Shown here: piece after piece, positions 8,578 to 60,900 of the stretch
How the letters are laid out: each line of letters opens with the position of its first letter
How positions within the stretch are numbered: the first letter of the stretch is position 1
NCBI GenBank assembly: GCA_014905635.1
Contig: JABVCE010000002.1
Span: 2,294,001 to 2,358,000 of the forward strand
Length of the DNA: 64,000 nt
DNA from: Scenedesmus sp. PABB004
Lineage: Eukaryota
Reading direction: 5' to 3'
Position numbers and translations under genes: made by a program
Notes under the pieces: model-generated
What the model was told of the DNA's origin: nothing
The model's database searches: none
Seen by the model: the letters and a program-made list of their open reading frames with translations, nothing else

Positions 8578-11500
8578 TCAGTCCTGGCGGCGCACGGCAT
8601 CGACCCTGAGCGGGGGGGGGGGCGAGCGGTTCTCCGGCGGTTCTCCGGCGCCGTGCACCGCGCACCGACGCGCGCCCGCTCACGCGCCCCCGGCTGCCGC
8701 CGCGAGCAGCCGCGCCGCCGCCTCGCCCGCCAGCAGCGCGGCGGCGCCGTTGTCGGCGGCCGCCGCGTCGCGCAGCGCGCGCAGCGCCGCGCCGCGCTCG
8801 GCCGCGAGCGCGCCGCCGCCGGCGGGGCCGCCCAGCAGCGCGGTCAGGCGCAGCGCGCCGAGCGCGGGCTCCCAGTCGCCGTCGCGCGCGGCCGCGGCCG
8901 CGAGGTCCAGGCAGCGCGCCGTGGCGCCGGGCGGCGCCTTGCGCGCCGCGGCCGCGACGAGCGCGCCGAGCACGGGCGGCAGCGCGAGCCGCGCGCCGGC
9001 GGCGGGCGCCGCCCCCTGCGTGCGCGCCTTGCCGGTGGCGGCGGCGCCGCCGCGGACGGGCACCGGCGCCGCGTTGGGGTTGACGTTCTCTGCGCGGCGG
9101 CGGGCGGAGGCGGCGGTGAGCAGCCGCGCCTGCGCGGCGCCCGCCGCCCGGCGCCGCGTGCCACACCTGCGTCGTCGTCGTCGCTGCCGGCGTCCTCGCT
9201 GCCGCCCGACGACGCAGCGGCGCCGTCGTCCTCCTCCGCCCGGGCCGCAGCAGCGGCCAGCGGCGCGAGCCAGTCGTCCGCGCCGCCGGCGGCCCCGTCG
9301 ACGAGCGCCGCGGCCAGCGCGGCCGCGTCGCCGCACACCGCCGCGCCCGCGGGCGCGAGGGGCCCCGCCGTCAGCGCCTCGGTCCACTGCAGCAGCCAGG
9401 CCCTGAGTGCAGGCGCCGCCGCCGTCGCCGCCGTCGCCGCCGGCGGCGTGAGCAGTGTGCGCAGCAGCTGCGTGTTGAGCGCGACCGCGCCTGGGGGCGG
9501 CGGGTGGTGTGGCGGGCGTTTCGCAGCGGGTGGGGGCGCTGGCGGCGGCACTGCGCGCCGCGCCACGCCGCGCGGCGCGGGCAGCCGCGCGGCGGCTCAC
9601 CCCTCGCGTCGTCGCTCAGCGGCGCGTCGCCGCCGGCCGCCGCCGCGGCGCCGCGCACGCCCGCGAGCAGGCTGGCGCCGCACTCTGCGGTCGCCGCGGT
9701 CGCCGCGCCGAGCGCGGGTGCGAGCTCGCCCGCGAGCTGGCTGCAGGCGGCCAGGGTCTTGAGCGCCGCCCACACGTCCCTCAGCAGGCCGTGGACCTGC
9801 AGCACCGCGCCCAGCACCTGGGCGCCCAGCTCGCCCGCCCAGGCGTCGGCGGGCAGCGACCGCAGCGCGGCGCAGCCTGCCGCCAGCTGCTGCAGCACCG
9901 CGACAGCGCCTGCGGCGGGCGGGTCGGGCGGGGCTGGGCTCCGGCAGGCCGCGCCGCGCGCTGCGCGCCGCTCGCCGTGCGCTGCACGCCGCGCCGCGCG
10001 ACCCCCCCCCTTCCCTGCCCGCTCGCGCGCGCACCTTGCGCCAGCGCCCCGGGCGCCTGCTCCGCAGCCTGCGCGAGCAGGTGCACGCCGCCGCGCGCCG
10101 CCAGTACGCCGGTCGCGAGCGCCTCGAGCGCGCGGCCCGCGACGCGGCCGCCGGTGCCCGGCCGCGCCGCCGCCGCGGCCGCCGCGCCGCGCAGCAGCGG
10201 CAGCATGCGCGGCAGCGCGCCGCTGCGCGACAGCGCGCCGCGCCCGCTGTCGCTCATGAGGAGCAGACCGACCGCGGCGAGCGCGGCCTCGCGCGGCAGC
10301 GCGCACGCGCGCACGTCGTCGGCGCAGCCGGGGCAGAACCAGTCGCCCTCTGGCACCGCGCCGAGGGGCGGGTCGAGGCAGTCGGTGTGGTGCCCGCGGT
10401 CGCAGCCGTCGCAGAGCAGCATGCTCGCCTCGGGCTCCGCCTGCCCGCACGCGGCGCACGTGACGTCGTCGACGGCGCCGGCGCCCGCGCAGGCGGCGTC
10501 GGCGCCGCAGCCCGGCGGCGGCGCCGCCGACGTGGCGGCGCTGTCGTGCCCCGGCCAGGCCAGGCCGAGCGCGGCGCAGAGCATCGCTGCGAGCTTGGGC
10601 CCCGTGCCGCCCGCCGCGAGGCACGCGAGCACCGCCGCCGCGTCGGCGGCGGTCGCCGCCTCGGGCGCGCCCGGCGCCGCGCTGGCGGCGAGCCAGGCCG
10701 CCGCGCCGTCGGTCACCGCCGGCGGCAGCAGCTCGCCGCTCGCGAGCAGCGCCATGCGGCTGGCCAGGAGCTGCCGCGCCGCCGGGAGGCACGGCAGCGC
10801 CTCGGCGATGCGCCACACGCAGCGCTCGCCCGCCGCGCTGGGGCAGGCGGCCAGCAGCTGCTGCAGGGCGGTGGCGGAAAACATGCCCTGCACGTCGCCC
10901 ACCTCGCCTGTGGCGGCGCGGGGGGCCGCGCGGTCAGAGACGCCGGCGGTGCGCGGCGGTGCGCGGCGCGGCGGCAGGGCGGCGGCGGCCACACGCACAG
11001 AGCTCGTGGAGCACCGCCATGCCGATGCCGGCGCACAGCTCCGCCAGGCCCCCGAGCAGCGCGAGCCAGCTGCCGGGCGTCTCCTCCTGCGCGCCGATCG
11101 CCACCACGTCCACCTCGCCCTCGCCCTCGGCCTGGCCCTCGGCCGGCGGCCCGCCGCCCGCACTGGGGCCGGCGCCGCCGGGCGCCTTCTTGCGCTTGCC
11201 GCCGCGACCGCCGCGCGGCGCGGGCTCGGGTCCGTCCGCGGGTCCGTCCGCGGGTCCGCCGTCGCCGGGGCGCCGGCTGCGCGCCTGCTTGCGTGGCGGG
11301 CTGCGGGGGTCGTCGACCGGCGCGTGGCTCAGCAGGTGGGTCATGAGGCACGACGCGAGCGACAGGATGTCTTCGAGCGGCACCTGCACCTGGTGCGGGC
11401 CTGCGGCGCGGCGCCAGGGCCGGCCGGCGGCGGCGCGTCGGGGGCGGCGGCGCGTGTCGCCGTCGCCGGCGGCGGCGGCAGGGCGCTGCGCCCGCCGCGC

Positions 11501-15103: not shown

Positions 15104-15868
15104 TCACCTTCCGACCGCTGCCGCCTCGCCCGCCTGCTGCTGCTCCGCCGCCGCCGCGGCCGGCAGCGGCGCGTGCGCGGACACAAACCCCACCACGGCG
15201 TCGCACAGCTCCGCGCACACGGCGGCGCTCGCGCGGAAGTTGTGGTCGCCGCCCGGCACGACCACGAGCTCCGACGGCCCGCCCAGCGCGGCCGCGATCG
15301 CGCGCCCGTCTTCCACTGGGATGACCGCGTCGGCGTCGCCGTGGACGGTGAGCACGCGCGCGGTCACCGCCGCCGCCGCGGCGCGCACGTCAGTGCCGAC
15401 GCGCTGCTCGAGGTCCTGCAGCGGCGGCGGCGCAAGCTCAGCTCAGCGGGCGTTGCACGGCGCCGCCGCCTGGTGCCCCCGGCCAGCGCGCGCGCGCTCG
15501 CCTCGGCGGTCAGCTCCCACGTGAAGCGGTGGCCGTCGTCGCGCTGCACCGACACGGCCACCGGCCCGCGCCGCACGCGCTCAAAGATGTATGCGCCGAA
15601 GCGCTCCTGTGCCGCCGCCGTGCGGCGGTCGTCGGCGCGGGCGCCTGCCGCGCGTGCCCGCGCCGCGCGCGCGCGCGCGGCCGCGCCTTGAGCCCCCGCT
15701 CCATGCGCCAGCGGCCCGCCGCGTTGATGATGAGCGGGACGGTGCAGTCGCGCGACGCCGCATAGAGCAGCACCGACGTCGCGCCCTTGCTGTGGCCTGC
15801 CGCGCGAGCGCCCGGCGGCGGCGGGTGCGGCGGCGTTGGGGCGCGGCCGGTCGCAGCGACAGGGCACG

Positions 15869-15900
<32 letters not shown>

Positions 15901-16362
15901 CCCGCCCGCCCGTCCCCGCGGCGCCGCACCCAGCACCGCGACCACGGCCGCGCGCTCGTGGCGCGTGAGGTGCTCCACCGCCGCAGCCACGTCGCGCGCC
16001 TCGTCCGCGTAGTTGGCAAAGCGGAAGGGCCCCTCGCTTTCGCCGTTGCCGGAAAAGTCAAAGCGCAAGCTGTCGTAGCCTGCGGCGCGGCGGCGGCGCC
16101 GCGGGCGTGGCTCGGCGCCGCTGGCCGCCGGCGCGAGCGAGCTCGGCGCACCCGCGTCGCTGAGCGCCTGCGCCAGCGCCGGGAGCTGGAAGCCGTCCTT
16201 AAAGCTAGCGTAGCCGTGGCAGAGCACGACCGTCGGGCGCGCGCCGCTCTCGCTGTCGGCGCCGGCGCCCGCGGCGCGCTGGAGCAGGCCGACGAGGCGG
16301 TGGCCGGCGGCGTTGCGGAAGGCGACCTTGCTGACGGTGCTCGCGCGCTCTGCCTGCGCCAT
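15104..16362 (-). CDS. Alpha/beta-hydrolase (serine esterase/peptidase-like)
   Basis: VVLCHGYAS, LRFDFSGNGESEGPF, nucleophile elbow G|HSKG, VLTVHGDADAVIP and GGDHNF give a Ser-Asp-His triad. An alternative upstream ATG lies at 16446. Confidence 0.9.
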
Positions 16363-16758
16363 GAGGACCAGCGAGCGCCTGCCGCGCCGGCGCAGCCTGC
16401 ACGCGCTGCGCTGCTGCTGCGGGCGCTGCTGGCGCCGCTGCAGCATCCAGCGCCCGCCGCGCGCGCTACTGACACGCTGAGCCGGCTTGGGAACTCGACG
16501 CGCCACAGGCCGCGGGCGGAGCGCTCCTGCAGCTGCCGCGCCGCGGTCGCCGCCGCTGCTGCTGCTGCCGCGCGTACGCTGCAGCGCGAGGGCGCAGCTC
16601 GGAGAGCCTCGAAGCGCGGGTGGGTGTTGCCTGATTGCGACCAGCGCCCTGACCCGCAACAAGCGCCGCGCCCGCGGGGCTTGCTGCCAAGCCCCGCGCC
16701 GCCGAGCCCCGCGCGCCGCCCGGCGGCCTTCCGGCTGCGAGCACACAGCGCGCGCCGC

Positions 16759-19700
16759 TCACGCCTCCATCGCGTCCTCGTACTTGCGGTCCGCGTCGCC
16801 GCTGCCGCCCGCGCCATACTCCTCGTCGCTGCCGCTGCCGTCGCCGCTGCCGTCGCCGCTGCCGCTGCCGCTGCCGCCCTCCTCGCCGCCGTCGCTGCCG
16901 GACGCGTCGCCGCTCTGTGCCGGGGCGGCGGCGGCGGCGACGGGCGCGGGGTGAGCGGGGCATGCAGCGCGCGGCGCGCCGCGGGCGCGAGGCGCGTGGT
17001 GTGGGTGCCATTTGGAGCCGTGCGCGGCCCACGGGCGGGGGCCGTTAGGTAACGAGTGGCACCCCGGGGTCTGCTGCTGTGGGTTGAATCGTACTAGTTG
17101 GGACGCTACCGCGCACAGCGGCCCAACACTCTCGCAACCGTGTGCTGCCTGCTGCCGCTGCGCCCGCGCGCGCCCTGGCGCCGCGCGCGCCCCGCCCCGC
17201 GCCCCGCGCCGCGCCGCGGCGCACCTCGCTGCCGCTGCGCAGGCCGTCGGCGTCGTTCGCGGCGTCAAAGTCAAAGTCTGACCCCGGCTCCTCGCCGTCG
17301 TCGTCGTCGCTGTCGTCGCCGAGGCCCGCCGCCGCGGCGCTCGCAAAGTCGGCCTTTGCGCGCTTGGCGCGCTGCCGCTCCGCGCGCGCGCGCTTGGGGT
17401 TGTGCTGCCCCAGCTCCGCGTACAGCTCCGCCGTCTGGCCCTTGGCGCCGGCCTTGGCGCCGCGCGGCGCGGCCGCGGGCGCGCCGTACGCGTCCGCGTC
17501 GCCCTCGTCCATGGCGGCGCCTGCGGCGGCGGCGCGGCGGCGCGGGCGTCGGGCGCCGGGCGCCGCGGGGCGCGGCGCAGCGCACGGCGCGGGCGCGGCG
17601 CGCGGGGCGCACCGTCTGCGTCGGCCTCCTCCGCCTCCCCTGCCTCCTCTGCCTCCATCTCCGCCAGCCCCGCCGCGACCGCGCCGGCCGAGGCGGCCTC
17701 GAAGAAGCCCGCGGTGTTGTCCTCGAGCGAGGGCAGGTGCTGGATGACTGCGCTCGCCTCGGCCGCAAACACCCTGCGCGCGCGCGCGCGCGCGGGCGCG
17801 CGGGCGGGGCGCGTCGGCGGCGGGCGGCGGCGGCGGCAGGCCCCCGCGGCGGCGGCGTTTGCGCAGGCCCCCGCGCCGAGCGCCGCGCACTTGTCGGCGT
17901 CAAACTCGGCCGCCCAGTCGCCGACGACGGCCGCGGTGTCGTACGCGTCGTTGGGCCGCGCCGCGGGCGGGGAGGTGTAGTATGGGATGACGCCGCTGTT
18001 CCAGTCCTGCAGCACGATACGCGCGGCGGCCTGCGCGGGCGCCGGCGCGCAGCGCGGGCGGCGGGGCGGCGGGGCCGCTGGGCGCGCGGCGCGGCGCGGC
18101 GCACGAGGGAGGGCGCGAGAGGGGAGGGAGGGAGGGAAAGAGAGAGAACGGGAGAGGTGTGGTGTGGGGTGCAGCCCACAGAGAGGGATGTGGGTGCCGA
18201 TATTCGAAGATCAGTGCATCGCCCTGGAGCGGGCTCCCCATCCCCGGAGATCGGCACCGCCGCCGCTCTGGCCCCTGCTTGAAACCGTGGCAGCACCGCG
18301 GCCGCCGCCACAGCTCTTCACTTCAGGGCCGCGCCGCGCCGCGCCGCGCGCGTGCGACGCTGCGCCCCGCCCCCGCCGCCGCCGCCGTTGCTGCCGACAC
18401 CGCCGCGGCGGCCCCCGGGCGCACCTCCGTGTCCACGACGCCGCCCTTCTTGAGCTTGCCGCGCGCCGCCGCGATGGCCTGCAGGAAGCCGTCCAGCCCC
18501 TCAAACGCGCCCACGCGGTACACCGCCATCAGCTGCGCCGCCGGCACGCGGCGCAGGATCTCGGCCACGGGCGTGAGCGGGTCGGCCAGGCGCTCGACCT
18601 GCGCGGCGCGGCGCGGCGCGGCGCGGCGCGTGGGAGGGCGGCGGGCGCGGGGGCGGGCGCGGGGGACGGCGCCGCCGGCGGCTGGGCGGCGCGGCGCGCC
18701 TTGACCGCGTTGCGCAGCGCCGCCGCCGCCGCGCCCTCGCCGCTCGTGAAGACGATGCCGGGCGAGTCCAGCAGCCTGCGGCGGCGGCGGCGGCGGCGCG
18801 GTTGGCGGCGGCGTGCGCGGTCGGCGGCCGGGTCAGCGAGGCCGGGCGAGGGCGGCACGCCGCGCATCATCATCATGCTGGCCCCACCTGATGTGCTTGT
18901 CCAGGTGAATCTCCTGCACGCCCTTGGTCACGCCCGGCGTGGAGCCGACCTGCGCGGGCGCCGCGCGGCGGCGGCAGCGGTCAGCGCCCGGGCCGGCAGC
19001 GGCCCGCCGCGCGCCGGCCTGGCGGCGGCAGCAGCCTGGCGGCGGCGGCGCAGCGGCGGCCTGGCGGCGGCGCGCACCTGCGCGACGCGCGCGCGCTTGA
19101 GGCTGTTGATGAGGCTCGACTTGCCCACGTTGGGCAGGCCGATCACGCCGACCGTGATGCTGCCCTTGCCCTTGCCGCCCATCGCGTTGCGCGCATAGTT
19201 CTTCAGCAGCTGCGCGTGTGTGCGTGCGTGCGTGTGCGTGTGCGTGTGTGTGGGAGCGCGGGGGGGGGGGGGGGGGCAGGTGAGAAGAAACGCACGAGCG
19301 AGAGAGATGGGGAGGGGGAGGGAGCCAGGGGGCAGGCGGAGCGGCGCGCGGCACGAGAGGCCCCGCGCGGGCGCGCGGGCCCACCTGCAGCAGCGTCTCG
19401 GCGCCGAGGCAGCCCGCGCCGGCGGCGCCGGCGGCGCCGGCAGCGCCCGCCGCCTTGCCCTTGGCGCCCTTGGCGCGCGCGGCGCCGCCGCGCGTGCGCG
19501 CGAGCCCCTCGGCCTGCTGCTGCGTGGAGGCCTTGAACCCCAGCGCCGGCAGCTCCTGGCGGTAATACTTGAGCCACGCCTCGCCGACCTCCCGCGGCAC
19601 CAGGTCTGCCGCGCGGGCGCGGGCGGCGGCGCGGCGGCGGCCGGGCGCGCGTCGGCCGCCGCGAGCTCTTGCGCGCGCGCTGAGCCCCGGCCGCCGCTGA

Positions 19701-21125
19701 GCCCCGGCCGTCGCTGCGCCCCCGCCGTCGCTGAACCCTGGCGGCCGTCGCTGAACCCTGGCAGCCGTCGCCGCCGCTGGCTGGCTCACCCATCTTGTTC
19801 AGCAGCAGCACGATGCGCTTGCCGGGGTCGAGGCTGCGCACGTAGCGCTCGACGTCGGGGCAGCGGCAGCCCGCGGGGTCGCGCGCGTCGAGGACCTGAA
19901 TCACCACGTCGCTCGACTCGACGACGCGCCGAAACTCCTTGTAAAAGGCGCGCCGCGAGTTGTCTGCGCGCGGCGCGCGGCCCGCGGCGCGGCGGGCTGA
20001 GCGCGTGGCGCGAGCGCTCGCACGCAAGAGAGAGAGGGAGAGAGGGAGGGGAGGGAGAGGGAGTGAGAGGGGTGGTTGGAGTGAACTGTGGGTGCCGATA
20101 TTCGAAGATCAGTGCATCGCCCTGGAGCGGGCTCCCCATCCCCGGAGATCGGCACCGCCGCCGCTCTGGCCCCTGCTTGAAACCGTGGCAGCACCGCGGC
20201 CGCCGCCACAGCTCTTCACTTCAGGGCCGCGCCGCGCCGCGCCGCGCGCGTGCGACGCTGCGCCCCGCCCCCGCCGCGCCGCGCCGCGCGCACCCGCGTC
20301 GCCAGCGCCGCCGCCGTCGCTCGCCAGCTTGGCGCGCTTGCGCGCCTCAAAGTCGCTGGCCTTGTGCCCCGCGCTCGCCGCGAGCGCCGCGAGCGCCTGC
20401 GGGTCGCCGAGCTCCGCCTCCATCGCCCCCGCCGCGCGCTCCTGCGCGCAGGAGACGGGGGGGGGGGGGGGGGGGGGCGTCAGCTGCCGACCCCCGCGCC
20501 GTACCGCGCTGCGCGCTGCGTGCGCTGCGTGCCGCGTGCGCCGCGTGCCGCGCGCGCCGTGCGCCGTGCGCCGCGCGTCACCTCGCGCGCGCGCTTCTTG
20601 GCCTCCTTCTTGGCCTTGTCCGCGAGCAGGACCTGCTGCCGCTTCCAGGCCATCTCCTTGAGCAGCTCCTCCTTGAAGGGCCACTGCGAGGGGATGCCCG
20701 GGTCCTTGGGCTCCTGCGGCGGCGGCGAGCGGGCGGCGGCTTGGTTGGCGGCGGCGAGCCCCGGCGGCAGCGCCGCCAGCGCGGCGCGCGGGCGCGGCGT
20801 GGGCGCGGGCGCGGCGCGGGCGCGGCGCACGCGCCTTGGGCTTGATGCCGGCCTTGGCGCGCTTGCGCTCCTCCTTGCGCTTCTTCTTGTGGTGCTCGCG
20901 CACCTTCTTGATGACCTGCGCGCCGCCGGCCGCGGCGGCGGCGGGTCGGCGGCCGCGTCCTGCGGCTGCACCATTGCGGCGCGCGGGCCCCGCGCCGGCG
21001 GGCTGTGGGCCGCCGGGCCGCCGGCGGCGCGCAGCCAGCAGCGCGACCCCGCGGCGGACCTTGTACTTTTGCTTCAGAGACATGCGCTTGCTCTTGGACT
21101 TTTTGGACCGCTTGGCGCCCACCAT
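16759..21125 (-). CDS. NSN1: Nucleostemin-like circularly permuted nucleolar GTPase (GNL3/NSN1/Nug1 family)
   Basis: Basic N-terminus [74 protein letters not shown]1 motif [33 protein letters not shown] and [14 protein letters not shown]. Acidic C-terminus. Confidence 0.95.
16997..17142 (-). ncRNA. Intronic box H/ACA snoRNA (type 1) in the last GTPase intron (16915-17224)
   Basis: Minus strand: GGTTG-[CGAGAGT]-GTTGGG..CCCAAC-[TAGTACGATT]-CAACC, H box ACAGCA (17075-17080), second hairpin GGGTGCCA..TGGCACCC, then ACA (17000-17002) plus 3 nt. Both pockets complement conserved 25S rRNA sequences. Confidence 0.85.
18186..18330 (-). ncRNA. Intronic box H/ACA snoRNA (type 2, copy 1) in intron 18031-18424
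   Basis: Hairpin 1 GGCCCTG-[AAGTGAAG]-AGCTGTGGCGGC/GCTGCCACGGTT-[TCAAG]-CAGGGGCC, hinge AGAGCG, hairpin 2 GGTGCCGAT-[CTCCGG]..[TCGAAT]-ATCGGCACC, then ACA at 18189-18191. Confidence 0.88.
19679..19770. repeat. Degenerate 17-20 bp intronic minisatellite (GCTGA(A/G)CCC..GCCGTC)
   Basis: Five related units. The last two, gctgaaccctggcggccgtc and gctgaaccctggcagccgtc, differ at one base. Confidence 0.7.
20084..20228 (-). ncRNA. Intronic box H/ACA snoRNA (type 2, copy 2) in intron 19964-20293
   Basis: Identical to copy 1 from the ACA box (20087-20089) through the 5' hairpin. Only the 3 nt after ACA differ. Confidence 0.88.
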
Positions 21126-36114: not shown

Positions 36115-39100
36115 TCACGCCGCGACGACGGCCCCGCCACCGCCAAAAAAGTGCGCGCGCGCGGCCGCGGCGTCGGGCCAGGTGCCGACCAGGTGCGGCC
36201 GCATGAGGCGATACACGGCGGCAAAGGCGCCGCCGTCGCGGGCCGCGGCGGCGGCCTCGAGGAACGACGCGGCGGGGACGCCGACCGCGGCGACGCCGCC
36301 CGCGGCGCGCGCGAGCCGCGCCGCCTGCAGCACCTGGCCCATCGCCAGCAGCTCGCGCACGAGCGCCGACGTGGAGGCGCGCCCGCCCGCGGCGCCGTCC
36401 GCGGCGCCGCCTGAGCCCCCGCCGCCGCCGACTGGGCGCAGCTCTGGCACGGCCTGGCGCGACATGACGTCCAGCGCCAGCTCAGCGGCGATGGCCGCGC
36501 CGGGCCCGCCCGCGCCGTCGGCGCCGCCGCGGCGCGACACCTCGAGCAGGTGCGCCGCGAGCGCGGGCGAGCCCGCGCCGGGCTGGCTGTAGAGCAGCTG
36601 CACCGCCTGGTAGGCCTGGCCCTGCTGCAGCAGCAGGTCCACGCCCAGCGTCTGCACGTACGGCGGCGGCGGCACGCCCGCCGCGTCCGACGCGGCGCAA
36701 TACTCAGCGACCGCCGCCTGCGCGCGCGCGTGGGCGGGCGGTGAGCGTGCGCTGGGCGGGCGGTGAGCGCGCGCCGGGCGCAGCCCGAGGCCTGCGCGCC
36801 GCGCCCTCCGCCGCCGACGCGCGCCTGCAGGTACAGGGCGTCCACGAGCTCCTCGTCGTGCACCCACTGGAAGAGCTCGCGCGCCAGCGCCGCCGGCGTG
36901 ACGACCGCGACCGCGGGCACGCCCGGCCCCGCCGCCGGCGCGGCGGCGACGGCGCCGGCGCGCCCCCGGCGCGGCCGAGCGCCTCGGCGTGTGCCTGCGG
37001 GGCGAGCGGGGCGAGCGCACGGGCGAGCGCGCGAGCGCGGACGCGCGCTGGTCAGGCGCGGGCACGCGGGTGCGCGCGGGCGCCGTCCGCTGCGCGGCTG
37101 CCGTGCGCTGCGCGGCTGCCGTGCGGCGCGCGCCGACTCGGCCCCGTGCGCGTGGCGCCCCCGTGCGCGCCTGCAGCAGGCTGTCGAAGATCGCGCGCAC
37201 GACGCCGAGCGGCACGCGCTCCTGCAGCGCGCCGCGCGCGACGCCCATGAGCAGGCGCCGCGCGTCGGCCGCGAGCGGCGCGCCCGGCGGCAGGCTGTGC
37301 CGGCGCAGCAGGAAGCCCACGAGCGCGGGCCAGTCCTCGGCCGAGTCGGCGATCGCCTGCGCACGGCGTGTCGCGCGGCGCCGCGCCGCGTCAGTGGGCG
37401 GCGCGCGCGGGCGCCGGCGCCGGGCGCCCGGGCGCGCGCGCCGCGCCGCGCCGCGCCTGCAGGTCGAGCTGCAGCCGGCCCACGCTGTTGGTGGCGGCGT
37501 CGTGGATGACGCAGGGCATGTGGTAGCGCCACGCCGCCGCGTGCTGCACCTCGCTCGACTCGTACACCTCGGCGCCGCCGCTGCTGCCGCCGTCGGGCGC
37601 CCCCGCCGCGCCGCCGCCGCCGCCGCTGCTGCTGCCCGCGCCGCCGTCCCGGCCCGCCGCCGCTGCCGCCGCCGCGGCCGCGAGCGCAGGCGGCAGCAGC
37701 GCGAGGCGGCGCAGCGGCAGCGGGTTGGCGACGTGCGCGGCGGTGGGCAGCGCGACGTCAAAGATCATCGCGACGGACGTGTCGGGCAGGTGCACGACGA
37801 GCGCGTTGTCCACGACGCTCAGCGCCACCGCCGGCGTGGGGAGCTCGTACACGTGCTGCAGGATGATGGTGTCTGTGTAGAAGCGGTACAGCTCCAGCGC
37901 CGCGCCGCCGCCGCCGCCGGCGCCGCCGCCGGGGCCGCGCGCGTCGGCGTGCGCGAGGTACACGCGGCCGTACATCTTCAGCAGCCACAGGCGCTCGGGG
38001 CGAGGCCGCGGTGCGGGCCGCCGCCGCCGCCGGCGGCGCCGCCGCCCAGCGCCGCCGCGGCGGCGGCGGCGGCAGCGGCGGCGGCGGAGCGGGCGGCGCC
38101 CCGTCGCCGGGCGCGGGCGCGGGCGCGGGCGACGGCGCGGCGGGCTGCGGCGGCGGCGGCAGCGGCGGCTGCTGGAAGGGGCCGGACGCCGGCAGGAACT
38201 GGCGCACCGCCGCGGACGCTGGCAGCGGGCCCTGCGCGATGGCGGGCGCGGCGCGGTCAGCGGGCGGCGGCACGCATGCCCCGCCCTGCGGCGACGCGCG
38301 CGCAGCCGAGCGGCCGGCCCGCCGGCGCCCCCGTGCGTGTGCCGCGCGGCGCGCGCGCGCCTGCAGCTCAAACGTCGGCAGCTGCGTGATGCCGTGGCTC
38401 GCAAACTGCCACGCCATGAGCGCGCTGCGCGGCGGCGCGGCCGCGCCGACGAGCACCATGCGCGTCTCGTACGTGTAGTGCGCCCACGCCGCCGCGCAGC
38501 GGATGCGCTCGCGGACGCGCAGGCCCTGGCGCCTGCGGCGCGGGCCGGGCCGGGTCGGACCGGGCCGGGCCACGTCGGCGGGGCCAGCGCGCTCGCTGCG
38601 CGCGCGCGCGCCGCCCGGCCGCGCAGCCCGCCCGCCCGGCCCCGCTCGCTCGCCGCCGCCGCGGCCGCCGCACCGCGCGGCAAACTGCGTGAGCTCGACC
38701 GCGCGGCTCGTGACGACGACGAGGTCTGTGTCGGGCGCGTCGGTGAAGAAGAAGGCCAGAATCTCGCCGCGGCCCTTGTGGATGCTGTGCGCGAAGCACA
38801 GCCCGCTCGCGAGGTCGACGAGCTCCAGCAGCGCCGCGCTGCGCTGCACCGCGAGTAGCCGGTTGTCCAGCGACGGCCGCAGCGCGAGCACGGGCGGGCC
38901 CTCCTGCGCGGCGCGCGGCGCGCGGCGCGCGGGTGAGGGGCTCGGCGGCCGCGTGTGCAGGCCCTGCAGCCGCGCGCGCGGGCCCCGCGGCGCCGCAGCC
39001 GCGCGGGCGGGCCCCGCGCCGCCGCCCGCACCTGCAGCGGGTACATCCAGCGCAGGCTGCTGTCGCCGGCGGGGCCCTTGGAGACGTCGTAGGCAAACAC

Positions 39101-41845: not shown

Positions 41846-44800
41846 TCACGAGAAGAGTGCAGCGCCGCCGAGCGCGCTTGGCAGCGCAACGACCGCCGGC
41901 GTCGCAAACGCGCCCGTCCGCGGCGCGACGCACACGCCCTTGCCGCGCGGCGGCTCGGCCGGCAGCGCGCGGCCCGCGTGGCAGGCCGCGGCAAAGCTGA
42001 CCAGGGCGGCCGGGCGCGAGGCGCCCTTGAAGGCAAAGCAGCCGACGTGGCTGACCTGCACCGGGACGGCCACCGGCGGCGCGGCGGCGGCGCGCGCAAA
42101 GCTGGTCTGCGCCGTGAAGCGCGGCGCCAGGGCGGCGCCACCGCGCGCGCCGCTGCCGTCCGCCTGCGCGGCCGCGAGCGGCTCCGGCGCGGGCTCCGGC
42201 GCGGGCTCCGGCGTGGGCGCGCGCCCCTCGCCGCCTGCCGCCGGGGCGTGCCGGGCTCCGCGGCGGGCGCGTCGGCGGCGCCGCCGTCGCTGCGCCCCGC
42301 ACCGCGCGCCTGCCAGCACGCCAGCACAGCCTTGGCGAGCGCCGTGTCTGAGACGACCTGCCCGCCGTGCGCGGCGGCGTCCGTGATGCGCGCGGCGGAG
42401 TTGACCGCAGCGCCGCAATAATCGGCCCTGCCGCGCGCGTCCGGAGCGATGCTGGCGGGCGAGCCCTGCGCGAGGCCCATGCGCAGACGCGGCCCCCGGA
42501 ACACGAGCCTGCCCGCCGCGTCGTGCTGGGGGCACAGCCAGCGCAGGCCGAGCAGGGACGGCGGCCACGGCACCCACAGAGCCGCCTCCTGAACGAGCAG
42601 CGCCCACTCCACCGCACCCGCGGGCGAGGCAAAGGCGGCGAGGAAGCGCAGCTCGCCCTGCTGCGCGCGGCACAGGTACGACCCCGGCACCTGCTGCACC
42701 GCCTCCAGCAGCAGGCGGTGCAGCAGCAGGTGCATGTCGCGCAGGCCGGGGTAGCGGTGGAGCTGCAGCTGCTGGCTGCCCTCCACGGCGACGAAGCAAA
42801 AGGTGACGGGCGGGAACGCCGGCGCGCCCGGCCGCCGCAGCCCGCCCGCGCCGCGGCTGTCCTCCGCCTGGCTGCCCGGGCGCGCCGTCCACTGCCAGCT
42901 GCAGTTGAGCGACGCCGCGCGCAGGGCCGCGAGCTGCTGGCTGCTGCCCGAGGCGGCGCTGCCGGCGGCCGGCGCGCCGCCGTCCGACGGCTGCGGCGAC
43001 GACGGGCTGGCGCCCTGCAGCAGCCTGCTCTGCGCCTCCCCTCCCGCCACGAGCTCGCACAGGCCTGCGTCGCGCAGCGCAGCGCGGCGCGGCGGCGCCG
43101 CGCGTCGGCGGCCGTGCGGCGGGCGCTGCGGCGGGCGCCGCCTCGCGTGCGCGCGCATCCTCCCCTTCCGACGCTCAAGCCCCGCGCCCCCACCTGGCGC
43201 CGCAAAGTAGGGCTGGTCCAGGCAGCGCCAGCCGTCAGGGATGCCCAGCGTGTTGCCGAAGAGTGCCGCGCGGCCGGTCAGCGACGGCGGCAGCAGCTGG
43301 TACAGCCGCACTGTCCCGCCCGGCGTGCCGCCGCTGGCGACGCTGACGCAGCTGTGCTCGCCGGCGCTCAGCAGCGAGCCCTGCCGGCGCTGCCAGCTGC
43401 CGGCGCTGCCGATGCTCGGCCCCAGGCGCCGCAGGTGGGTGCGCACCGCCTCGCTGAACGACGCGGCGCGCGCGGCCGAGGCGCCGCAGTCGAGCTGCAG
43501 CTGGCGGCGCAGCGCGCTCGGGCCGGACAGCAGGTCGCCGCCGTCGGCGACGTCAACCGGCAGCACCTGCAGCGCCAGCTCGCCCGCCTCGCACGACGCC
43601 GCGCGCACGCTGGCGCTGCGCCCCGGCCAGAGCGGCGCGGTCTGATACAAGCCCATGTCCAGCGCCACCGCGTCCTGGGGCGCCCCGGTGGAGCCCGCCT
43701 TGGCGTGCGCGCGCCGCAGGCTGCGCGGGCGCGGGCGGGGCGCGGGGGCGCGGGCGGGGCGCGGTCAGCGTGTCAGTGCGCTGCGGCCTGGCCAGCCAGG
43801 GGCCGGCCCGCGCGCTGCGCACGCACCAGCCGGCGCGGCGCGAGGGCAGCGACCGAAGGCGCCAGCCCTGCGGCCCGACGAGCCCGAGGCGGTGCAGCTG
43901 GTCACGCACGGCGGCAAAGGTCACGGCGTCAATAAGAACCTGCCCGCCGTTGGCGCAGTCGCTCACAGCTGCGGCGCGGGGTGGCGCGGGACGCGGCAGC
44001 GGTCAGCGCCCGCCGCGCAGCGAGCTTGGGCGGCGGGGCGGCAAACGGCGCCCGGCGGGCGCGGGCGCGCGGGCGGGCGCGCGGTGCGCACCCCGCGCGG
44101 CCGCGTAGGCCGCTGTGGACTCGATGGCTTCGCCCCTGTGCACCGTGCCGCTGCCGATGCCGATGCGGACGCGCAGGCCGGCGAAGAGCGGCGGCCCGCT
44201 CGCGCCGCCCGCCTGGAGCAGGTGCCGCCACCACTGCCGCCGCACCGCCGACTTGGGCGACAGCGCCCCGGCGCTGCTCCCGCAGCTGGGCGCGCCGGGC
44301 ACAAGCGCTCCGGCCGACGGCGGCGTGCTGAGCGGCAGGGCTGTGACGCCGCAGGCCTCGGACACCGTGCTGCCGCTCCAGCCGCACAGCGAGCGCAGGC
44401 CGCGCGGAGCGCCCTGCTTGGCGCCGCCGCCGCCGCTGCTGCCGCTGCTCTTGCGCTCGACGCCCTCGGCGGCGACCGCGGCGGCGCGCAGCTGGCCGAG
44501 CTGCTTCGCCAGCCAGCTGCCCGCGCGCGGCGCGGCGGGGCGCCCGTCGGGGGCCGCCAGGCCGCCCTCCTCCTCCTCAATGCTGTCGTGCGCGGCCGCG
44601 CCGCCGTTGGCCAGCCACACCGAGCCCGGGCGGGCGCAGGCGCTGAGCGCGCGGCCCATGCCGTGCCCGCTCGCGCTGCCCAGCCCCGCCGCCAGCTCCA
44701 CGTCGCCCGGCTCGCTCCAGCGCTGCCCCGGCGCGCCGCTGGCCAGCGGCGCCGACTTGGCTGCCAGCGGCGGCGCGGCGCCGGGGCCCCTGCCGCCGTC

Positions 44801-47767
44801 TGCCCCGGCGGCGGCGCGGCCCTCCCAGCCGTCGCCGTAGCTGATGCCCGGCCACGGCGCCTCCAGCAGCGCCTGCTGCACCTGCAGCGCAAACGCGCAT
44901 GCGTCCAGGGGGCTGTGGAACGCAAGGATGTAGGAGTCACCCTCCTGCGATGTGATGCATGCAGAGACGCGCCGGGTGCTCGGCGCCGGGTGCGGCAGCG
45001 TGGCGGCCCAGCGCGCGCCCCACGCGCCGGCGCGCCGCGGCGCGCACCTGCTCCAGCACGCAGCCGGCAAACGCGTAGGTGGCCTGCCGAATGATGTGGT
45101 TGTGCAGCGCCAGCGCCTGCGGACGCGCACGCGCGGCGCGGCCGCCGCGTCGGCGGCGCGCGGCGCGGAGGAGCCGCACGTGCCGCGCCCCGCACTGCGC
45201 AGCGGCGCCGGGGCACACACCTTGGCCATCGCTTCCGGCTGCTGCTCCATCAAGCGGGTGAAGCCCTGGATGTCAGTCACCGCCACCGACAGGTGCCCCG
45301 ACGACGGCTTGCCCTGCAGCGGCGGCGGCGGCGGCGGCGGGCGCCCAGGCGCTCAGGCGCAGCGCGGGGAGGGTGCGCGCGAGGGTGGGGCGGCGCCGCA
45401 CGCGGGGCTCGCAAACAACTCCCTCCCCCCACCTGCACGCGCTTGCGCTGGTACGCCCACGCCAGGCGCGCGCGCTCGAGGCTGGAGCTGCACTGGCAGG
45501 CCGCCGCGGTGGCACAGACCAGCACGAGGATGCCGAGGGGCACGGCCACGCCAACCACGAGCTTCCACACCCAGTCGCGCGAGTCATCGGCGGCGGGCGA
45601 GCCCGACACGCGCTCCAGCGCCGACACGCGGCCAAGCTGGCCCTGCGACACCTCGTCCGGCACGCCGGACGCTGCGGCGGCGGCGGGCGCGGCGTCAGCC
45701 GCACGCCAACGTGCGGCGCGCGGCGCGCAGGCGCGCCGCGGCGCTGCTAGCTCACACTCGCAGATGAACGCTGCGGGCCGGTTCTCGCAGTCGGCGTAGA
45801 GCACCCCGGGCTCGTTGTCGCCGGGCTCGGGCGGCAGGCCGGGCGGCGGGAACTGATTGACCAGCACGCCGCACACGCGCGCCTCGCGCGGCGAGACGGC
45901 GGTCTGGAACGCCAGCAGGCTGTCGTGCCACATCCAGGAGAACGCACGCTGCCTGCGCGGCGCGGGCGGCACGAGCGGCGGGCGGCGGCGTCGGCGTCCC
46001 GCAGAACCGAGCACGTGCTGGGGCCGCCGGGCGGCGCGCCCCGCCGCGCGGCGCCCGGCCGCGCCCCGCCGCCGGCCGGCGCGCACCTGAGGTGCTTGAC
46101 CAGCGCCGGCGCGACGGGCGTGCGCGCGGCGTCGAGCCAGCGCAGGCTCGCCAGCGTGCGCGCGGCCGCGTCGTCGGACGGCGGCAGCTGCACGCCGGCG
46201 GCGCGGGCGTCGGCGTCGGCGCTGGCGTTGGCGCCGCGGCCGTAATTCTCGCCGACCGCCCCGACCCACGCCGACTGCAGCGCGCGCTGGAACGGCAGCG
46301 CCGGCAGCAGGCGCTGCCCGATGCCCAGCACCGCCTGGCGCTGCGGCAGCACGGCGAGCGAGCCGTTGGGGAGCTCGCGGCACACCGCCGCGGCCTCGTC
46401 AAAGGTGACGCGCTCGGGAAAGAGCGTGAAATCCGAGTCGCCGTAGCGCAGCGACTCGATGCTGGGGTCTGCGGGGCAGAGCCGGGCGGGGCGGCGGGCG
46501 GCCGGGGCGGCGGTGTCAGGCACGGGTGGCCACCACGGCCCGCCGGCGAGGGCCGGCCGCGGCGCGCTGAGCCCCCGCGCCGAGCCCCCGCGCCGCGCGC
46601 CGCTCACTCAGCACAAGCCCATATTTGCGCCAGTCGGCCAGCTGGTCAAAGCACGTCACCACGCCGTCGGCCTGTGCGTAGCTGTCGCTGACGTAGCCGG
46701 CGGTCCAGCCGTTGTCCCCCTGCGCGCCGGACGGCGGGCGGGGCGTTGTCCCCTCGGCTGTCCGCCGCACCGCGTCTGCGCCGCGCCGCGCCGCGCCGCG
46801 TGCGCGCCGCGCAACGCACCGACATGGCCGATGTCTTGAGCCAGCAGTCGTACGAGCTGGCCGGCTCGCCGTCGGGGCCGCGCGTGAGCGCAAAGGTGAT
46901 GTGCGTGCAGTCGGGCGTGGCGGCGCAGACCTCGCGGCACTCGCCCGCGCTGCTCGTGTTGCTCGCGCGGCCGAGGTTGAGCCCCGCGACGTCGTGCGCG
47001 TGTGCGCAGTAGCCCTCATGTGCCGAGCCGCGCGCGCCGCGGTGCTCGTGCTCCAGCAGGCCCGCCAGCGTGCGGCCGAGCTCGTCCCAGTCGGCCTGGC
47101 TGCGCAGGCAGAGGTAGCCGAGCGTGCGGTTCTGCAGGCCGTCGCGCGCGGCAAACGCGGCGCCGAGCTGCGTCGACGGGTAGCTGCGCCCCGGCAGGTT
47201 GCGCCCCGCGCGCTCGACGTCCGACGTGTCGTGGCTCAGCAGGCGGCACGCGGGGCCCGCGAGCGTCGCGGCGCCGACCGACCACGCCGCGGTGCAGCGC
47301 GGCGCGGCGGCGGCGCACGCGGCGTTGCACCAGCGCGCGGTCGCGCCGGCCGTCGCGCGCGGCGCGCCGGGCGGCACCGGCGGCTCGTCGATCGTCGTGC
47401 CGAGCGGCTGCACATAGTCGAGGCACGAGAACGCGCCTGCGGCAGCGGGCGAGCAGAGTGCGGCGGCGTCTTGGTCGGCAGGAGCCAGGGCCGGCAGCGG
47501 CGTGGGAGACGCGCGGCGGCACCGGCGGCGCGGTGCCGGCCAGCAGCGGCGCGCTGCTACCGGTCGGCGGCGGTCGAGCGCGCGGCGGGCCCCAGCTGGC
47601 CCCGCGCGCCGGCGTGCCGGCCTCTGGGACGGACCCCGGGCCCACGCGCCTGTACTGGCGGTGGCGGCCGCGCCCGCGAGGCAGCACGCCCACGCCGCAG
47701 CGACCGCGGCCAGCGCCGCCGCGCCGCGCCGCCGCCGCGCCCGCGGCCCGTCGGCGCGGCGCGTCAT
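41846..47767 (-). CDS. Single-pass receptor nucleotide cyclase: signal peptide, two PAN/apple-like domains, C-type lectin domain, TM helix, two class III cyclase domains
   Basis: PAN: WCNAAC..RCTA..CRL and ECREVCAATPDCTHITF..CWLK. C-type lectin: TFDEAAAVCRE..GSLA..WVG..LRWLD..CGVL..DC..AFICE. TM: WKLVVGVAVPLGILVLVCA. Cyclase 1: VTDIQGFTRL..EGDSYILAF..GLRVRIGIGSG..ANGGQVLI. Cyclase 2: GPRLRMGL..DYCGAAVNSAARI..AHGGQVV. Confidence 0.88.
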
Positions 47768-49747: not shown

Positions 49748-50023
49748 ACACACGCGGCCGGCGACGCCGCCGGCGCTGGACGGAGCGGCCGCGCCGCCAC
49801 GCGCTGCGCCCGACGGCGCGCGGCGCCTGCCGCGGCGGCGGCGCCGGCGCCGCCCTGCCTACTCCGACAACAACAGATCAAACGCCCGGCTGCTGCTGTA
49901 CATCAATTGGTCCGAGCGAGATGGGTGGGTTCGCGCGCGAGTGCACCGCCGCAGAAGCCCGTGCGCCACGTGCCGTGTTGGTACAAGAAACCCCCGCCGC
50001 GAGGCCGCCGCGCCGCCGCGTCG

Positions 50024-57995: not shown

Positions 57996-60900
57996 ATGGC
58001 CGCCGCGCGCGTGGACGCCGCACTGCTCGCGTACCGCCGGCTCGCCATCTACGGCACCAAGTCGCGGCTCTACGTCGTCGGCCACGACGACGACGGCCCG
58101 CGGCGGGCGTGCCGCATCCTCAAGTTCCGCCGCCAGGACGGCCCGCGCCTGGACGTGGTCGAGGACCCCACGATCTACTCGCCGCCGCAGTGCGAGGCCG
58201 TGCTGCGCAGGGTGCACGAGCAGAGCGGCGGCCTGCACCTCGTCTGCAAGGTGGCCGGCCGCGCGCGCGACGACGCACGCGCCGCACGCGCCGCCGCGCT
58301 GCCCACGCCCGCGCCCGCGCCCCGCCACACATACGCCCCGCCAGGGCCACGGCATCATCGGGTGCTTTCGGTTCACCGACTCCTTCTACCTCCTGGTCGT
58401 CGCGCGCCGCGAGTTTGTAGGCCACATCGCCGGTGCGCGGCGCGGCGCGCCCGGGCGCTCCCGACGCCTCCCCCGCCTGGCGGCCGCGACGCGCCGCGGC
58501 GCGCCGCCCGCCCCAACACCCCGCCCCGCGCACGCGCGCCGCGCCGCGCGTGCACGTGCCGTGCTGTGCGGCGGCGTGGTCGCAGGGCACAAGGTGTACC
58601 GCATCGCCGAGACCTGCCTCATCAGCCTCTCCGCCAGCCAGCAGCGCATCGACGCGAGCGCCGCCGACAGCACCGCCGAGAAGCGGTGCGGGTCGCCGCC
58701 CCGCCCGCTGTCTCCCTCGCTCTGCCCACTGTCCCTCTCGCACACACCCGCTCTCGCACACGAGCACGCACGCACCAACCCACCCACTCACGCACACAGG
58801 TACCGCAAGCTCCTGCTCGGCGTCGACCTGACCAAGAATTTTTTCTTCTCATACTCCTACAGCCTCGCCCACAGCCTGCAGCACAACCACACCGCGTACC
58901 ACGCGGCGCGGCGCCCGGGCGGCGACGCCGGCGGTGACGGCGGCGGCGGCGACGGCGACGCCGACGGCGCGGCGCCGGGCGCGGCGGCGGCCGCGGCGGC
59001 GGCGGGCGTGGCGTCGTACGACAGCTGCATGTTTGTGTGGAACAGCTTCCTCACGCGCCCCCTGCGCAGCGCGATCGGCAGCGCGCGCTGGACGCTGCCC
59101 CTCATCCACGGCTTCTGGGAGCAGCGCCAGGTGCGCGCGGCGGCGGTGGCGCCGGCCGGCCGGCCGCCGCAGCGAGCATTGCTGGCGGCGCTGCCCCGCG
59201 CGCGCGCGCGCGCTCACGGCGCCGCCGCGCGCGGCGCGCCGCCGCGGCGCCGCAGGTGTCGGTCTTTGGCCGCGCGCTCACGCTCACGCTGCTCGCGCGG
59301 CGGAGCCGCCACTTTGCGGGGACGCGCTTTCGCAAGCGCGGCCTGAGCGCGCAGGGCTTTGTGGCCAACGAGGTTGAGACTGAGCAGATTGTGGACGCCG
59401 GCGTTGACTGGGCGACCGGGCAGCCGCTCTGGTCGGCCGTCGTGCAGGTCGGCCGGCGCGCCGCGCCCCGCCGCCGGGCGCGCGCGCAGGGGCTTCAAGC
59501 TCTCTCTCTCTCCGCCGCCGCCGCAGGTACGCGGCAGCGTGCCGCTCTTCTGGAGCCAGCAGGCGACGCCGCTGAGCCCCAAGCCTGACATCCTACTGCA
59601 GCAGTTCGACCCCGTGTACGAGGTGCGGCCCCCGCGCCGCCGCGCCGCGCCGCCGCCGCCTCGCGCGAGGGCCCGCCGCCCCCCACGCGCACGCACGGGC
59701 GGGAGAGCATGAGCAGCACGCGCTGCGCGCGCCCCCCGCCGCGCGCCGCCGCCCACGCGCCGCGCCGCCTCGGCCGGGGGCGGCCCGCAGAAGACGGCCG
59801 TCCACTTTGCCGACCTGCGGCGGCGCTACGGGGACCCGATCATCGCACTCAACCTGCTCAAAAGCAAGGAGCGGCGGTGAGGAGCCGCGCTGCGCCTGTG
59901 CCTCGCCGCGCGGCGCCCTATGCCGCGCCGCGCCGCGCCGCGCCGCGCCGCGCCGCGCTCTGTGCCGCCTCTCCCTGCAGGCGTGTCCACCACCCCGCCG
60001 TGCCCGCCCCGCCCGCCCACGCGCCCCGCCCGCCACGCCCGCCCGGCGCGGCGCAGCGCGCGCGAGGTGCTGCTGCGCCGCGAGTTTGGCGCCGCCGTCG
60101 CGCTCATCAACGCGCGCCTGCCGCCGGAGCAGCACGTCGTCTACATACCCTGGGGTGCGGCCGGCGCGCGCACGCCGCAGCGCACATGCCGCGCGCGCAC
60201 GCGCCGCGCACGCGCCACACACACATGGCGCAGGCCAGCCGCGCGCGCCGCGGCGGCGCCACGCCCGACGCGGCCCGCGCGCGGCGGCGGCGTCCGCGCC
60301 GCGCCGCAGACTTCCAGAAGCACGCGAAGCAGCCGGGCGCCAACATCCTGACCGAGATGCGGCCCCTGATCGACGTCTGCCTCGACGCCTCGGGTGCGTG
60401 CACACGCCGCGCCGCTGCGCCGCCCCGCCGCCGCCGCCGCCGCTGCCCCACCGCCGCCCTGCAGCCCTCCGGGCTCCCTGCCGCCCCGCCGCGAGCCGCG
60501 CGCGCTGATGCAGCCGCCGCCGCCGCCGCGCGCGCACCCCGCAGGCGTGTACGTGCACGGGCCCGCGTCGTGCGCGTCGTGCGCGCCCGCCATCGCGGAG
60601 CGCTTCGCCGCGCGCGCGCGCGGCGGCGCCGCCGGTGCCGCCGCCGGCGCCGCGCCCAAGCCCCGCACCTTTGCGCCGGCGACGCGGCTGCAGCGCGGCG
60701 TGCTGCGCACCAACTGCATCGACTGCCTCGACCGCACCAACGTCGCCCAGTTTGCGTTTGGGCTCGCCGCGTTTGGCCGGCAGCTCGCGGGCCTCGGCGT
60801 GCTGCACGAGGGCGGCGACGTCGACAGCGACAGCTCCATCGCGTTTGCGCTGATGGAGATGTACGAGGCCATGGGCCACACCGTCGCGCTGCAGGCGCGA

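Follow-up and report, generated by a model that had tools for sequence, protein, structure and literature searches.

The box H/ACA small nucleolar RNAs (snoRNAs) closest to the subject of this work are those guiding pseudouridylation in and around helix 69 of the large subunit (LSU) ribosomal RNA (rRNA). According to PMC7075261, pseudouridines (Psi) 3741 and 3743 of the human RNA are guided by U19, and Psi2258 and Psi2260 of the yeast one by snR191, in each case via two separate hairpins; yeast 2258 and 2260 correspond, respectively, to E. coli 1915 and 1917 (bioRxiv 10.1101/2024.02.02.578723). In the supplement of PMC8351944, Arabidopsis U2250 (equivalent to human 3743) is ascribed to U19, U2248 (human 3741) to snoR79 and U2304 (human 3797) to snoR83, the two helix-69 loop sites being in this way split between snoR79 and U19. 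Further downstream, human 28S Psi3801, placed at H64/70 (PMC10454564), is given as 50% modified (PMC6182160) and assigned to SNORA54 (PMC9941101), while the Arabidopsis supplementary table (PMC8351944) has no entry at its equivalent and the yeast table of PMC8307265 passes from Psi2314 to Cm2337 with none at 2318. Here, we describe a candidate box H/ACA snoRNA in a 64,000-nucleotide (nt) stretch from Scenedesmus sp. PABB004 (contig JABVCE010000002.1, positions 2,294,001 to 2,358,000; hereafter the window, in which all coordinates are numbered), whose two pockets are predicted to act on the equivalents of human Psi3743 and Psi3801.

Regarding the class itself, eukaryotic members are described in PMC7991803 as carrying an H box of consensus ANANNA and an ACA box located three nt from the 3' end, with pairing to the substrate requiring at least eight base pairs (bp), at least three of them to either side of an unpaired UN. 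The distance from target to box is given there as 15-16 nt, and in PMC7075261 as 15 ± 1 nt when counted from the last target-pairing base.

Architecture of the candidate RNA

The candidate is 146 nt long and would be read from the minus strand, from 17142 to 16997 (16997..17142; 66% GC), with both mature ends predicted from the sequence, and it is single-copy within the window. In this direction it successively displays a pocketed hairpin, the H box ACAGCA, another pocketed hairpin, and the ACA box followed by three more nt, that is, the hairpin-hinge-hairpin-tail arrangement with one pocket per hairpin and an ANANNA box after the 5' hairpin.

The 5' hairpin (17082..17139, minus strand) corresponds to the minimum-energy fold adopted by the 5' half on its own (-21.2 kcal/mol). 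Its lower stem GGUUG/CAACC pairs 17139-17135 with 17086-17082 (G4-G8 with C57-C61, numbering from 17142), and its upper stem, spanning 17127-17097, consists of 6 bp (G16-G21 with C41-C46) and then another 4 bp. The pocket enclosed between both stems is formed by the 5' strand CGAGAGU (17128..17134; C9-U15), with GAGAGU at 17133-17128 as its guide part, and by the 3' strand UAGUACGAUU (17087..17096; U47-U56), with UAGU at 17096-17093 as its guide part. The UAGUACGAUU strand and the five-nucleotide 3' strand of the lower stem add up to 15 nt, after which come a spacer C and the H box (17075..17080; nt 63-68). The latter begins one base past the lower stem, fits ANANNA, is the only hexamer of the hinge to do so, and is separated by a 10-nt linker from the 3' hairpin.

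The 3' hairpin (17003..17064, minus strand), which is likewise the minimum-energy fold of the isolated 3' half (-28.3 kcal/mol), is built on an 8-bp lower stem, GGGUGCCA/UGGCACCC, that pairs 17064-17057 with 17010-17003 (G79-A86 with U133-C140). Its upper stem (17049-17018) comprises 2 bp (C94-C95 with G124-G125), a 3x5 internal loop and 6 bp (C99-C104 with G113-G118). The pocket is lined by the 5' strand CUCGUUA (17050..17056; C87-A93; guide part CUCGUU at 17056-17051) and the 3' strand CUCCAAA (17011..17017; C126-A132; guide part UCCA at 17016-17013). The ACA box (17002-17000; nt 141-143) directly adjoins the lower stem and is followed by a CCA tail, the whole occupying 16997..17002; the distance of 3 nt to the 3' end rests on the predicted mature end. 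The U of UCCA is separated from the ACA by 14 nt, and the corresponding distance in the 5' unit is 15 nt plus the spacer base (16 in all), both values falling within the 15 ± 1 nt rule.

When the 5' and 3' halves were folded separately, each minimum-energy fold was of the hairpin-pocket-hairpin type, with the 5' half exhibiting two extra pairs, C9-G53 and G10-C52, that narrow its pocket to 5+5 nt. Folding of the whole RNA with pockets, hinge and tail held single-stranded yielded exactly the H/ACA shape, with -47.9 kcal/mol. The possibility of an RNA transcribed from the plus strand was also considered, and it was rejected because the plus-strand hinge lacks an ANANNA hexamer and the host gene lies on the minus strand.

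Predicted pairing with LSU rRNA

Pairing was evaluated on the Rfam LSU_rRNA_eukarya consensus and on surrogate targets, namely eukaryote-type LSU ribosomal DNA (rDNA) contaminating public prokaryote assemblies, which may differ from the 25S rRNA of the host; complete eukaryotic rDNA units are confirmed by Rfam in two of these loci, L064 and L069. At helix 69 the consensus reads GUAACUAUGACUCUC, wholly in upper case, with ACUCUC being the 3' strand of the stem and AACUAUG the loop, and further on it reads GAAUGgAuUAACgAG, which contains the second motif. In the 5' pocket the guide/rRNA duplexes UAGU/ACUA and GAGAGU/ACUCUC flank an unpaired UG (target motif ACUA-UG-ACUCUC), and in the 3' pocket the duplexes UCCA/UGGA and CUCGUU/AACGAG flank an unpaired UU (UGGA-UU-AACGAG). 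Each pocket therefore forms 6+4 Watson-Crick bp with consensus and surrogate LSU rRNA, in agreement with the pairing rule of the class, and the second target uridine is found 58 nt downstream of the first. In the four surrogate loci containing both motifs (L070, L066, L067 and L061) the predicted site is the top one for each pocket, scoring 10 Watson-Crick bp against at most 9.5, G-U pairs included, for the runner-up. The helix-69 site is similarly the best LSU match of pocket 1 in L064 and L069.

The register was checked in locus L001 by setting the first target as human Psi3743, upon which the modified positions of human 28S that the table of PMC6182160 gives between 3737 and 3830 all fell on the correct letter (17 of 17), and the second target therefore coincides with human Psi3801. 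The 5' pocket is thus predicted to target the helix-69 loop uridine equal to E. coli 1917, yeast 2260 and human 3743, and the 3' pocket the uridine equal to human 3801. Acting on both would presuppose that the native 25S rRNA contains ACUAUGACUCUC and UGGAUUAACGAG. For helix 69 the sequence of the host's own 25S matters little, since the consensus is there entirely upper case.

These observations concur with most of what the initial annotation of this DNA had proposed from the letters alone. The pocket strands GAGAGU, UAGU, CUCGUU and UCCA and the 14-nt distance to the ACA are all present on the minus strand of 16997-17142; the LSU motifs it put forward are real, as they occur both in the Rfam consensus and in eukaryote-type LSU fragments; the exact pairing around an unpaired UN was recovered with 6+4 bp per pocket; and its identification of the first target with E. 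coli 1917 is sustained in silico by the register of 17 letters out of 17. An antisense rDNA fragment in the intron was discarded as the origin of this complementarity, because only the 6+4 segments are complementary and both sites follow each other as they do in the rRNA, not in reverse.

Comparison with chance expectation

A loose architecture descriptor was applied to the window and to dinucleotide-shuffled versions of it. It asked for an ANANNA unit followed by an ACA unit, with lower stems no shorter than 5 bp, pockets 4-11 nt in length, a box at a distance of 14-16 nt and upper hairpins no less stable than -8 kcal/mol. A pocket was considered to match rRNA when it formed 10 contiguous Watson-Crick pairs, with at least four on each side, as scored on the surrogate rDNA of L064 and L070 (3422 uridines). 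Among the eight architecture candidates of the real window, a single one had any rRNA match, namely the RNA here described, and it did so with both pockets, at helix 69 and at the Psi3801 equivalent. In contrast, 300 shuffled windows produced 1182 candidates, of which 63 matched with one pocket and none with both. For pockets as such, 1.5-2.6% of trials reached 10 bp at some place of a single rDNA unit (random 7+7 pockets, 72/4000; shuffled pocket 1, 60/4000; shuffled pocket 2, 104/4000). It is the combination of the architecture with rRNA complementarity in both pockets that exceeds chance, and the probability of a chance origin becomes lower still because each of the uridines matched is known to be a pseudouridine in one or more reference species, an aspect not counted in these tests.

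Two composite guide-plus-box patterns, both chosen after the candidate had been seen, point in the same direction: GAGAGT-N20-50-TAGT-N9-14-ANANNA and CTCGTT-N20-50-TCCA-N9-12-ACA are each found once in the 64-kb window, at the candidate, and in none of 100 dinucleotide shuffles. The seven other descriptor fits lie at 10878-10991, 36462-36537, 43204-43302, 45413-45514, 49900-49983 and 58667-58758 on the plus strand and at 50046-49978 on the minus strand. Neither pocket of any of them has a 10-bp match in the surrogate rDNA, and they are probably due to chance, since their number matches that predicted by the shuffles.

Host gene, intron and genomic setting

The candidate lies on the sense strand, inside a putative intron of a gene for a ribosome-biogenesis GTPase. 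According to frame translations and Pfam, this gene (16759..21125, minus strand, with some 13 putative exons) encodes a nucleolar GTPase of the GNL3L/Grn1 (nucleostemin/NUG1) type, an assignment made on the matches of GN3L_Grn1 to exon 20579-20707 (E 2.8e-11) and of MMR_HSR1, through the P-loop of this GTPase domain, to exon 19074-19209 (E 1.9e-7). The host intron (16915..17224, minus strand, 310 nt, phase 0), as deduced from the frame translations and the sequence, has the putative splice sites GAG/GTGCGC ... CACAG/AGC, would connect two open frames and, running from 17224 to 16915, would be the last one of the gene. The candidate is situated 82 nt from either splice site, a possible branch site, CUCAC, is found near 16953-16957, and the candidate, with a GC content of 66%, contrasts with the flanking intron sequence on either side (91% and 89%).

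Other introns of the same gene show features of their own. An exact 191-nt repeat occupies 18189-18379 and 20087-20277, in two different introns, and its minus strand (the RNA would span approximately 18335-18186 in one copy, with its twin in the other) adopts a two-hairpin fold (z = -2.72) in which an ACA stands 3 nt from the end, the hinge exhibiting AGAGCG instead of a canonical ANANNA. It gives a weak match to Rfam SNORA17 (E 8.8) and another to the covariance model built from the candidate (E 2.5), and it is probably a second, duplicated H/ACA snoRNA. The introns at 19226-19276 and 20434-20474 contain (GCGTGT)n-like repeats followed by runs of at least 17 G. Downstream of the gene, a minus-strand frame at 15364-16758 resembles alpha/beta-hydrolases by eye, with no Pfam family at E 1e-5.

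The window as a whole is about 79-80% GC, with 75-83% in every 2-kb bin, and its open frames match condensin II, RMC1, the SacI domain, the KHDC4/BBP-type KH domain, and PHD and CCCH fingers; it is clearly eukaryotic and intron-bearing, and its GC content is extreme for a eukaryote. As for the loci that provided surrogate targets, eukaryote-type rDNA was encountered in several assemblies labelled as bacteria or archaea (L057, L064, L069 and others). Complete 18S-5.8S-LSU units appear in L064 and L069 on contigs binned as bacterial metagenome-assembled genomes, and two short LSU_rRNA_eukarya fragments appear in L057 (5692-6097) inside a 1.16-Mb contig of a named bacterium, all of which likely reflects contamination or chimeric assembly.

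Searches for related RNAs

A search of the 14-20 kb region with Rfam at E<=10 produced five weak matches, none of them relevant. Rfam includes models for the U19/SNORA74/snR191 families. Neither SNORA74/U19/snR191 nor SNORA54 matched the candidate at gathering score or at E<=10. Homologues were sought among 66 metagenome loci coding for relatives of one exon of the host gene, where the guide-plus-box patterns gave two chance matches of the pocket-1 type in AT-rich loci, neither accompanied by the partner pocket. A covariance model built from the candidate found nothing at E<=10 in any of the fetched loci, and three weak matches within the window itself (E 2.2-2.5). Exact 16-mer scans of public genome contigs (94 stretches) and viral contigs (6) returned chance matches only, with one far-fetched partial match and no full pocket-plus-ACA pattern among these 100 loci. 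The closest metagenome relatives of one GTPase exon come from marine contigs of 45-50% GC, at 72-83% identity.

Evaluation of the assignment and alternative explanations

Taken together, these features make it highly likely that the candidate is a real snoRNA, and on balance probable that it is a genuine intron-encoded box H/ACA snoRNA acting on both predicted targets. Several observations nonetheless weigh against this assignment. The whole window has no Rfam match at gathering score, the only overlap with the candidate being that of the trypanosomatid H/ACA TB10Cs4H4 on its 5' part, which is insignificant (E 2.5; 19.8 bits versus a gathering score of 50), and covariation support is lacking because no homologue was found. 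Without constraints, the whole RNA reaches its global minimum (-51.4 kcal/mol) in a fold other than the H/ACA one (-46.7 kcal/mol), and its folding z-score is +0.62, those of the halves being -0.76 and -1.3; folding energy is thus neutral on whether the RNA is real. The 3' upper stem closes its pocket with just 2 bp ahead of the internal loop, and, 5' of the target, pairing is limited to 4 bp in either pocket. Architecture alone gives 8 candidates in the real window versus 4.2 ± 2.1 per dinucleotide shuffle (n=200), 15 of the 200 shuffles reaching at least 8, so that two hairpins with their boxes are by themselves no rarer than chance in DNA of 80% GC.

The second target also brings objections. 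Fourteen eukaryote-type LSU loci reach this site, and they were selected solely by the first motif and its 3' neighbourhood, for which reason they are uninformative on the conservation of the helix-69 motif. The second motif is exact in only seven of them; three have no target U (L059, L060 and L065), four differ elsewhere (L063, L064, L068 and L069), and the target U is a lower-case, less conserved column of the Rfam LSU consensus. This motif is therefore not as conserved as the initial annotation suggested, and the claim made there of a second site modified in both yeast and human is correct by half: the human part stands, with Psi3801 at 50% (PMC6182160), and the yeast part does not, since the yeast table of PMC8307265 has nothing at 2318.

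These objections feed the idea of a real H/ACA snoRNA with only one pocket working as predicted, either because the host 25S differs and leaves the 3' pocket targetless, or because the 5' pocket is inactive or directed to some other site, with the helix-69 pseudouridine provided by another snoRNA. In addition to the variability of the second motif (exact in 7/14 loci, with its target U in a lower-case column), the equivalent site is modified to 50% in human (PMC6182160) and unlisted in the yeast (PMC8307265) and Arabidopsis (PMC8351944) tables, the 5' unit has an extra spacer base ahead of its H box, and the C9-G53 and G10-C52 pairs reduce the 5' pocket to 5+5 nt in the minimum-energy fold. 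We nevertheless deem this explanation unlikely, as both pockets form 10 contiguous Watson-Crick pairs around the UN at sites with a known pseudouridine in one or more reference species, none of the 1182 shuffled-window candidates matched with both pockets, and the maintenance of a guide strand with 6+4 bp suggests that its target is present. A look-alike produced by chance, in which a GC-rich intron folds into two hairpins beside A-containing hexamers and yields no stable RNA, would account for the number of descriptor fits, for folding energies that are the same as those of shuffles, and for the lack of both an Rfam match at gathering score and a homologue among the loci searched. We consider it distinctly unlikely in view of the rRNA match, found in just one of the eight fits, with both pockets, and at known pseudouridines 58 nt apart (0/1182 in shuffles), the absence of each composite pattern from 100 shuffles, the sharp 146-nt island of 66% GC in an intron of about 90% GC, and its location on the sense strand of a ribosome-biogenesis gene with similar elements in other introns. 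Finally, another RNA with an H/ACA domain, such as a small Cajal body-specific RNA (scaRNA) for small nuclear RNAs or a processing snoRNA, would share the same fold, and our target scan covered rRNA. The motif UGAG is characteristic of the CAB box of scaRNAs. Neither of the terminal loops, GUGCGCGGU and CCGCCCGU, contains it, and the best matches of both pockets are at rRNA sites, which renders such a non-guide or snRNA-directed role very improbable.

Proposed function and implications

If the candidate is a two-target guide RNA, its biogenesis would follow what is established for H/ACA ribonucleoproteins (RNPs). The GNL3L/Grn1-type pre-mRNA would be transcribed, and Cbf5/dyskerin, Nop10 and Nhp2, later joined by Gar1, would assemble on both hairpins and on the H and ACA boxes. 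Upon splicing of the intron, exonucleases would trim it down to some 146 nt, with the 3' end placed 3 nt past the ACA, and in the nucleolus each pocket would pair with pre-25S rRNA around the unpaired UN, allowing Cbf5 to isomerise the U.

Such an RNA very probably represents an ordinary guide that adds one gene to a well-known class, with no new kind of mechanism; we class it as an ordinary intronic H/ACA snoRNA because differing combinations of guide modules across lineages are commonplace. Finding a guide for helix 69 was also to be expected, since its pseudouridine is among the most conserved rRNA modifications. Its annotation contributes a guide RNA not listed before, from a eukaryote that is poorly described and has some 80% GC, together with two directly testable predictions of rRNA pseudouridines. 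Of both, that of the second pocket is the more useful, since it would place far outside vertebrates a modification so far known from human (50%), at a position missing from the yeast and Arabidopsis lists. We would only tentatively go further and propose that pseudouridylation of the Psi3801 equivalent is indeed guided in a protist or alga that is very distant and extremely GC-rich, by a guide fused in a single RNA with that of the universally conserved helix-69 Psi1917 equivalent. If so, this variable modification would be either ancient and repeatedly lost or independently gained, and a single intron of a nucleolar GTPase gene would jointly supply the two modifications of neighbouring regions of domain IV.

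Comparison with known guide RNAs

Regarding gene organisation, human U19 resides in a non-coding host gene, whereas the host of the candidate is a protein-coding gene of the GNL3L type. The arrangement is the same as that in the Ostreococcus tauri catalogue, where intronic snoRNAs are located in protein-coding genes, several per host gene (PMC7671301). The main text of that catalogue mentions none of U19, helix 69, H69, snR191, SNORA54 and SNORA74; in its supplement, Ot-HAsno100 has an Infernal match to SNORA74 and, as compared by listed targets only, does not include helix 69 among them. A literature search for Chlamydomonas H/ACA catalogues found none.

With respect to targets, human U19/SNORA74, yeast snR191 and Arabidopsis U19 share with the candidate the same helix-69 target and UN configuration, according to the data available in PMC7075261, PMC8351944 and PMC8307265. 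However, the second hairpin of U19 and snR191 guides the neighbouring Psi3741 or Psi2258, whereas that of the candidate aims 58 nt downstream, and, as read directly from its pocket strands, the candidate has no pocket for the 1915-equivalent U, unlike U19 and snR191. Its 3' pocket fits instead the position to which human SNORA54 is assigned, 28S Psi3801 (PMC9941101). By predicted target, the candidate may thus be regarded as a functional analogue both of SNORA54 and of the Psi3743/Psi2260 hairpin of U19/snR191, with no homology to either detectable by Rfam. Its combination of targets differs from those of both U19/snR191 and SNORA54, and it provides one more data point on the reshuffling of guide modules, with guide functions combined otherwise than in U19 and snR191.

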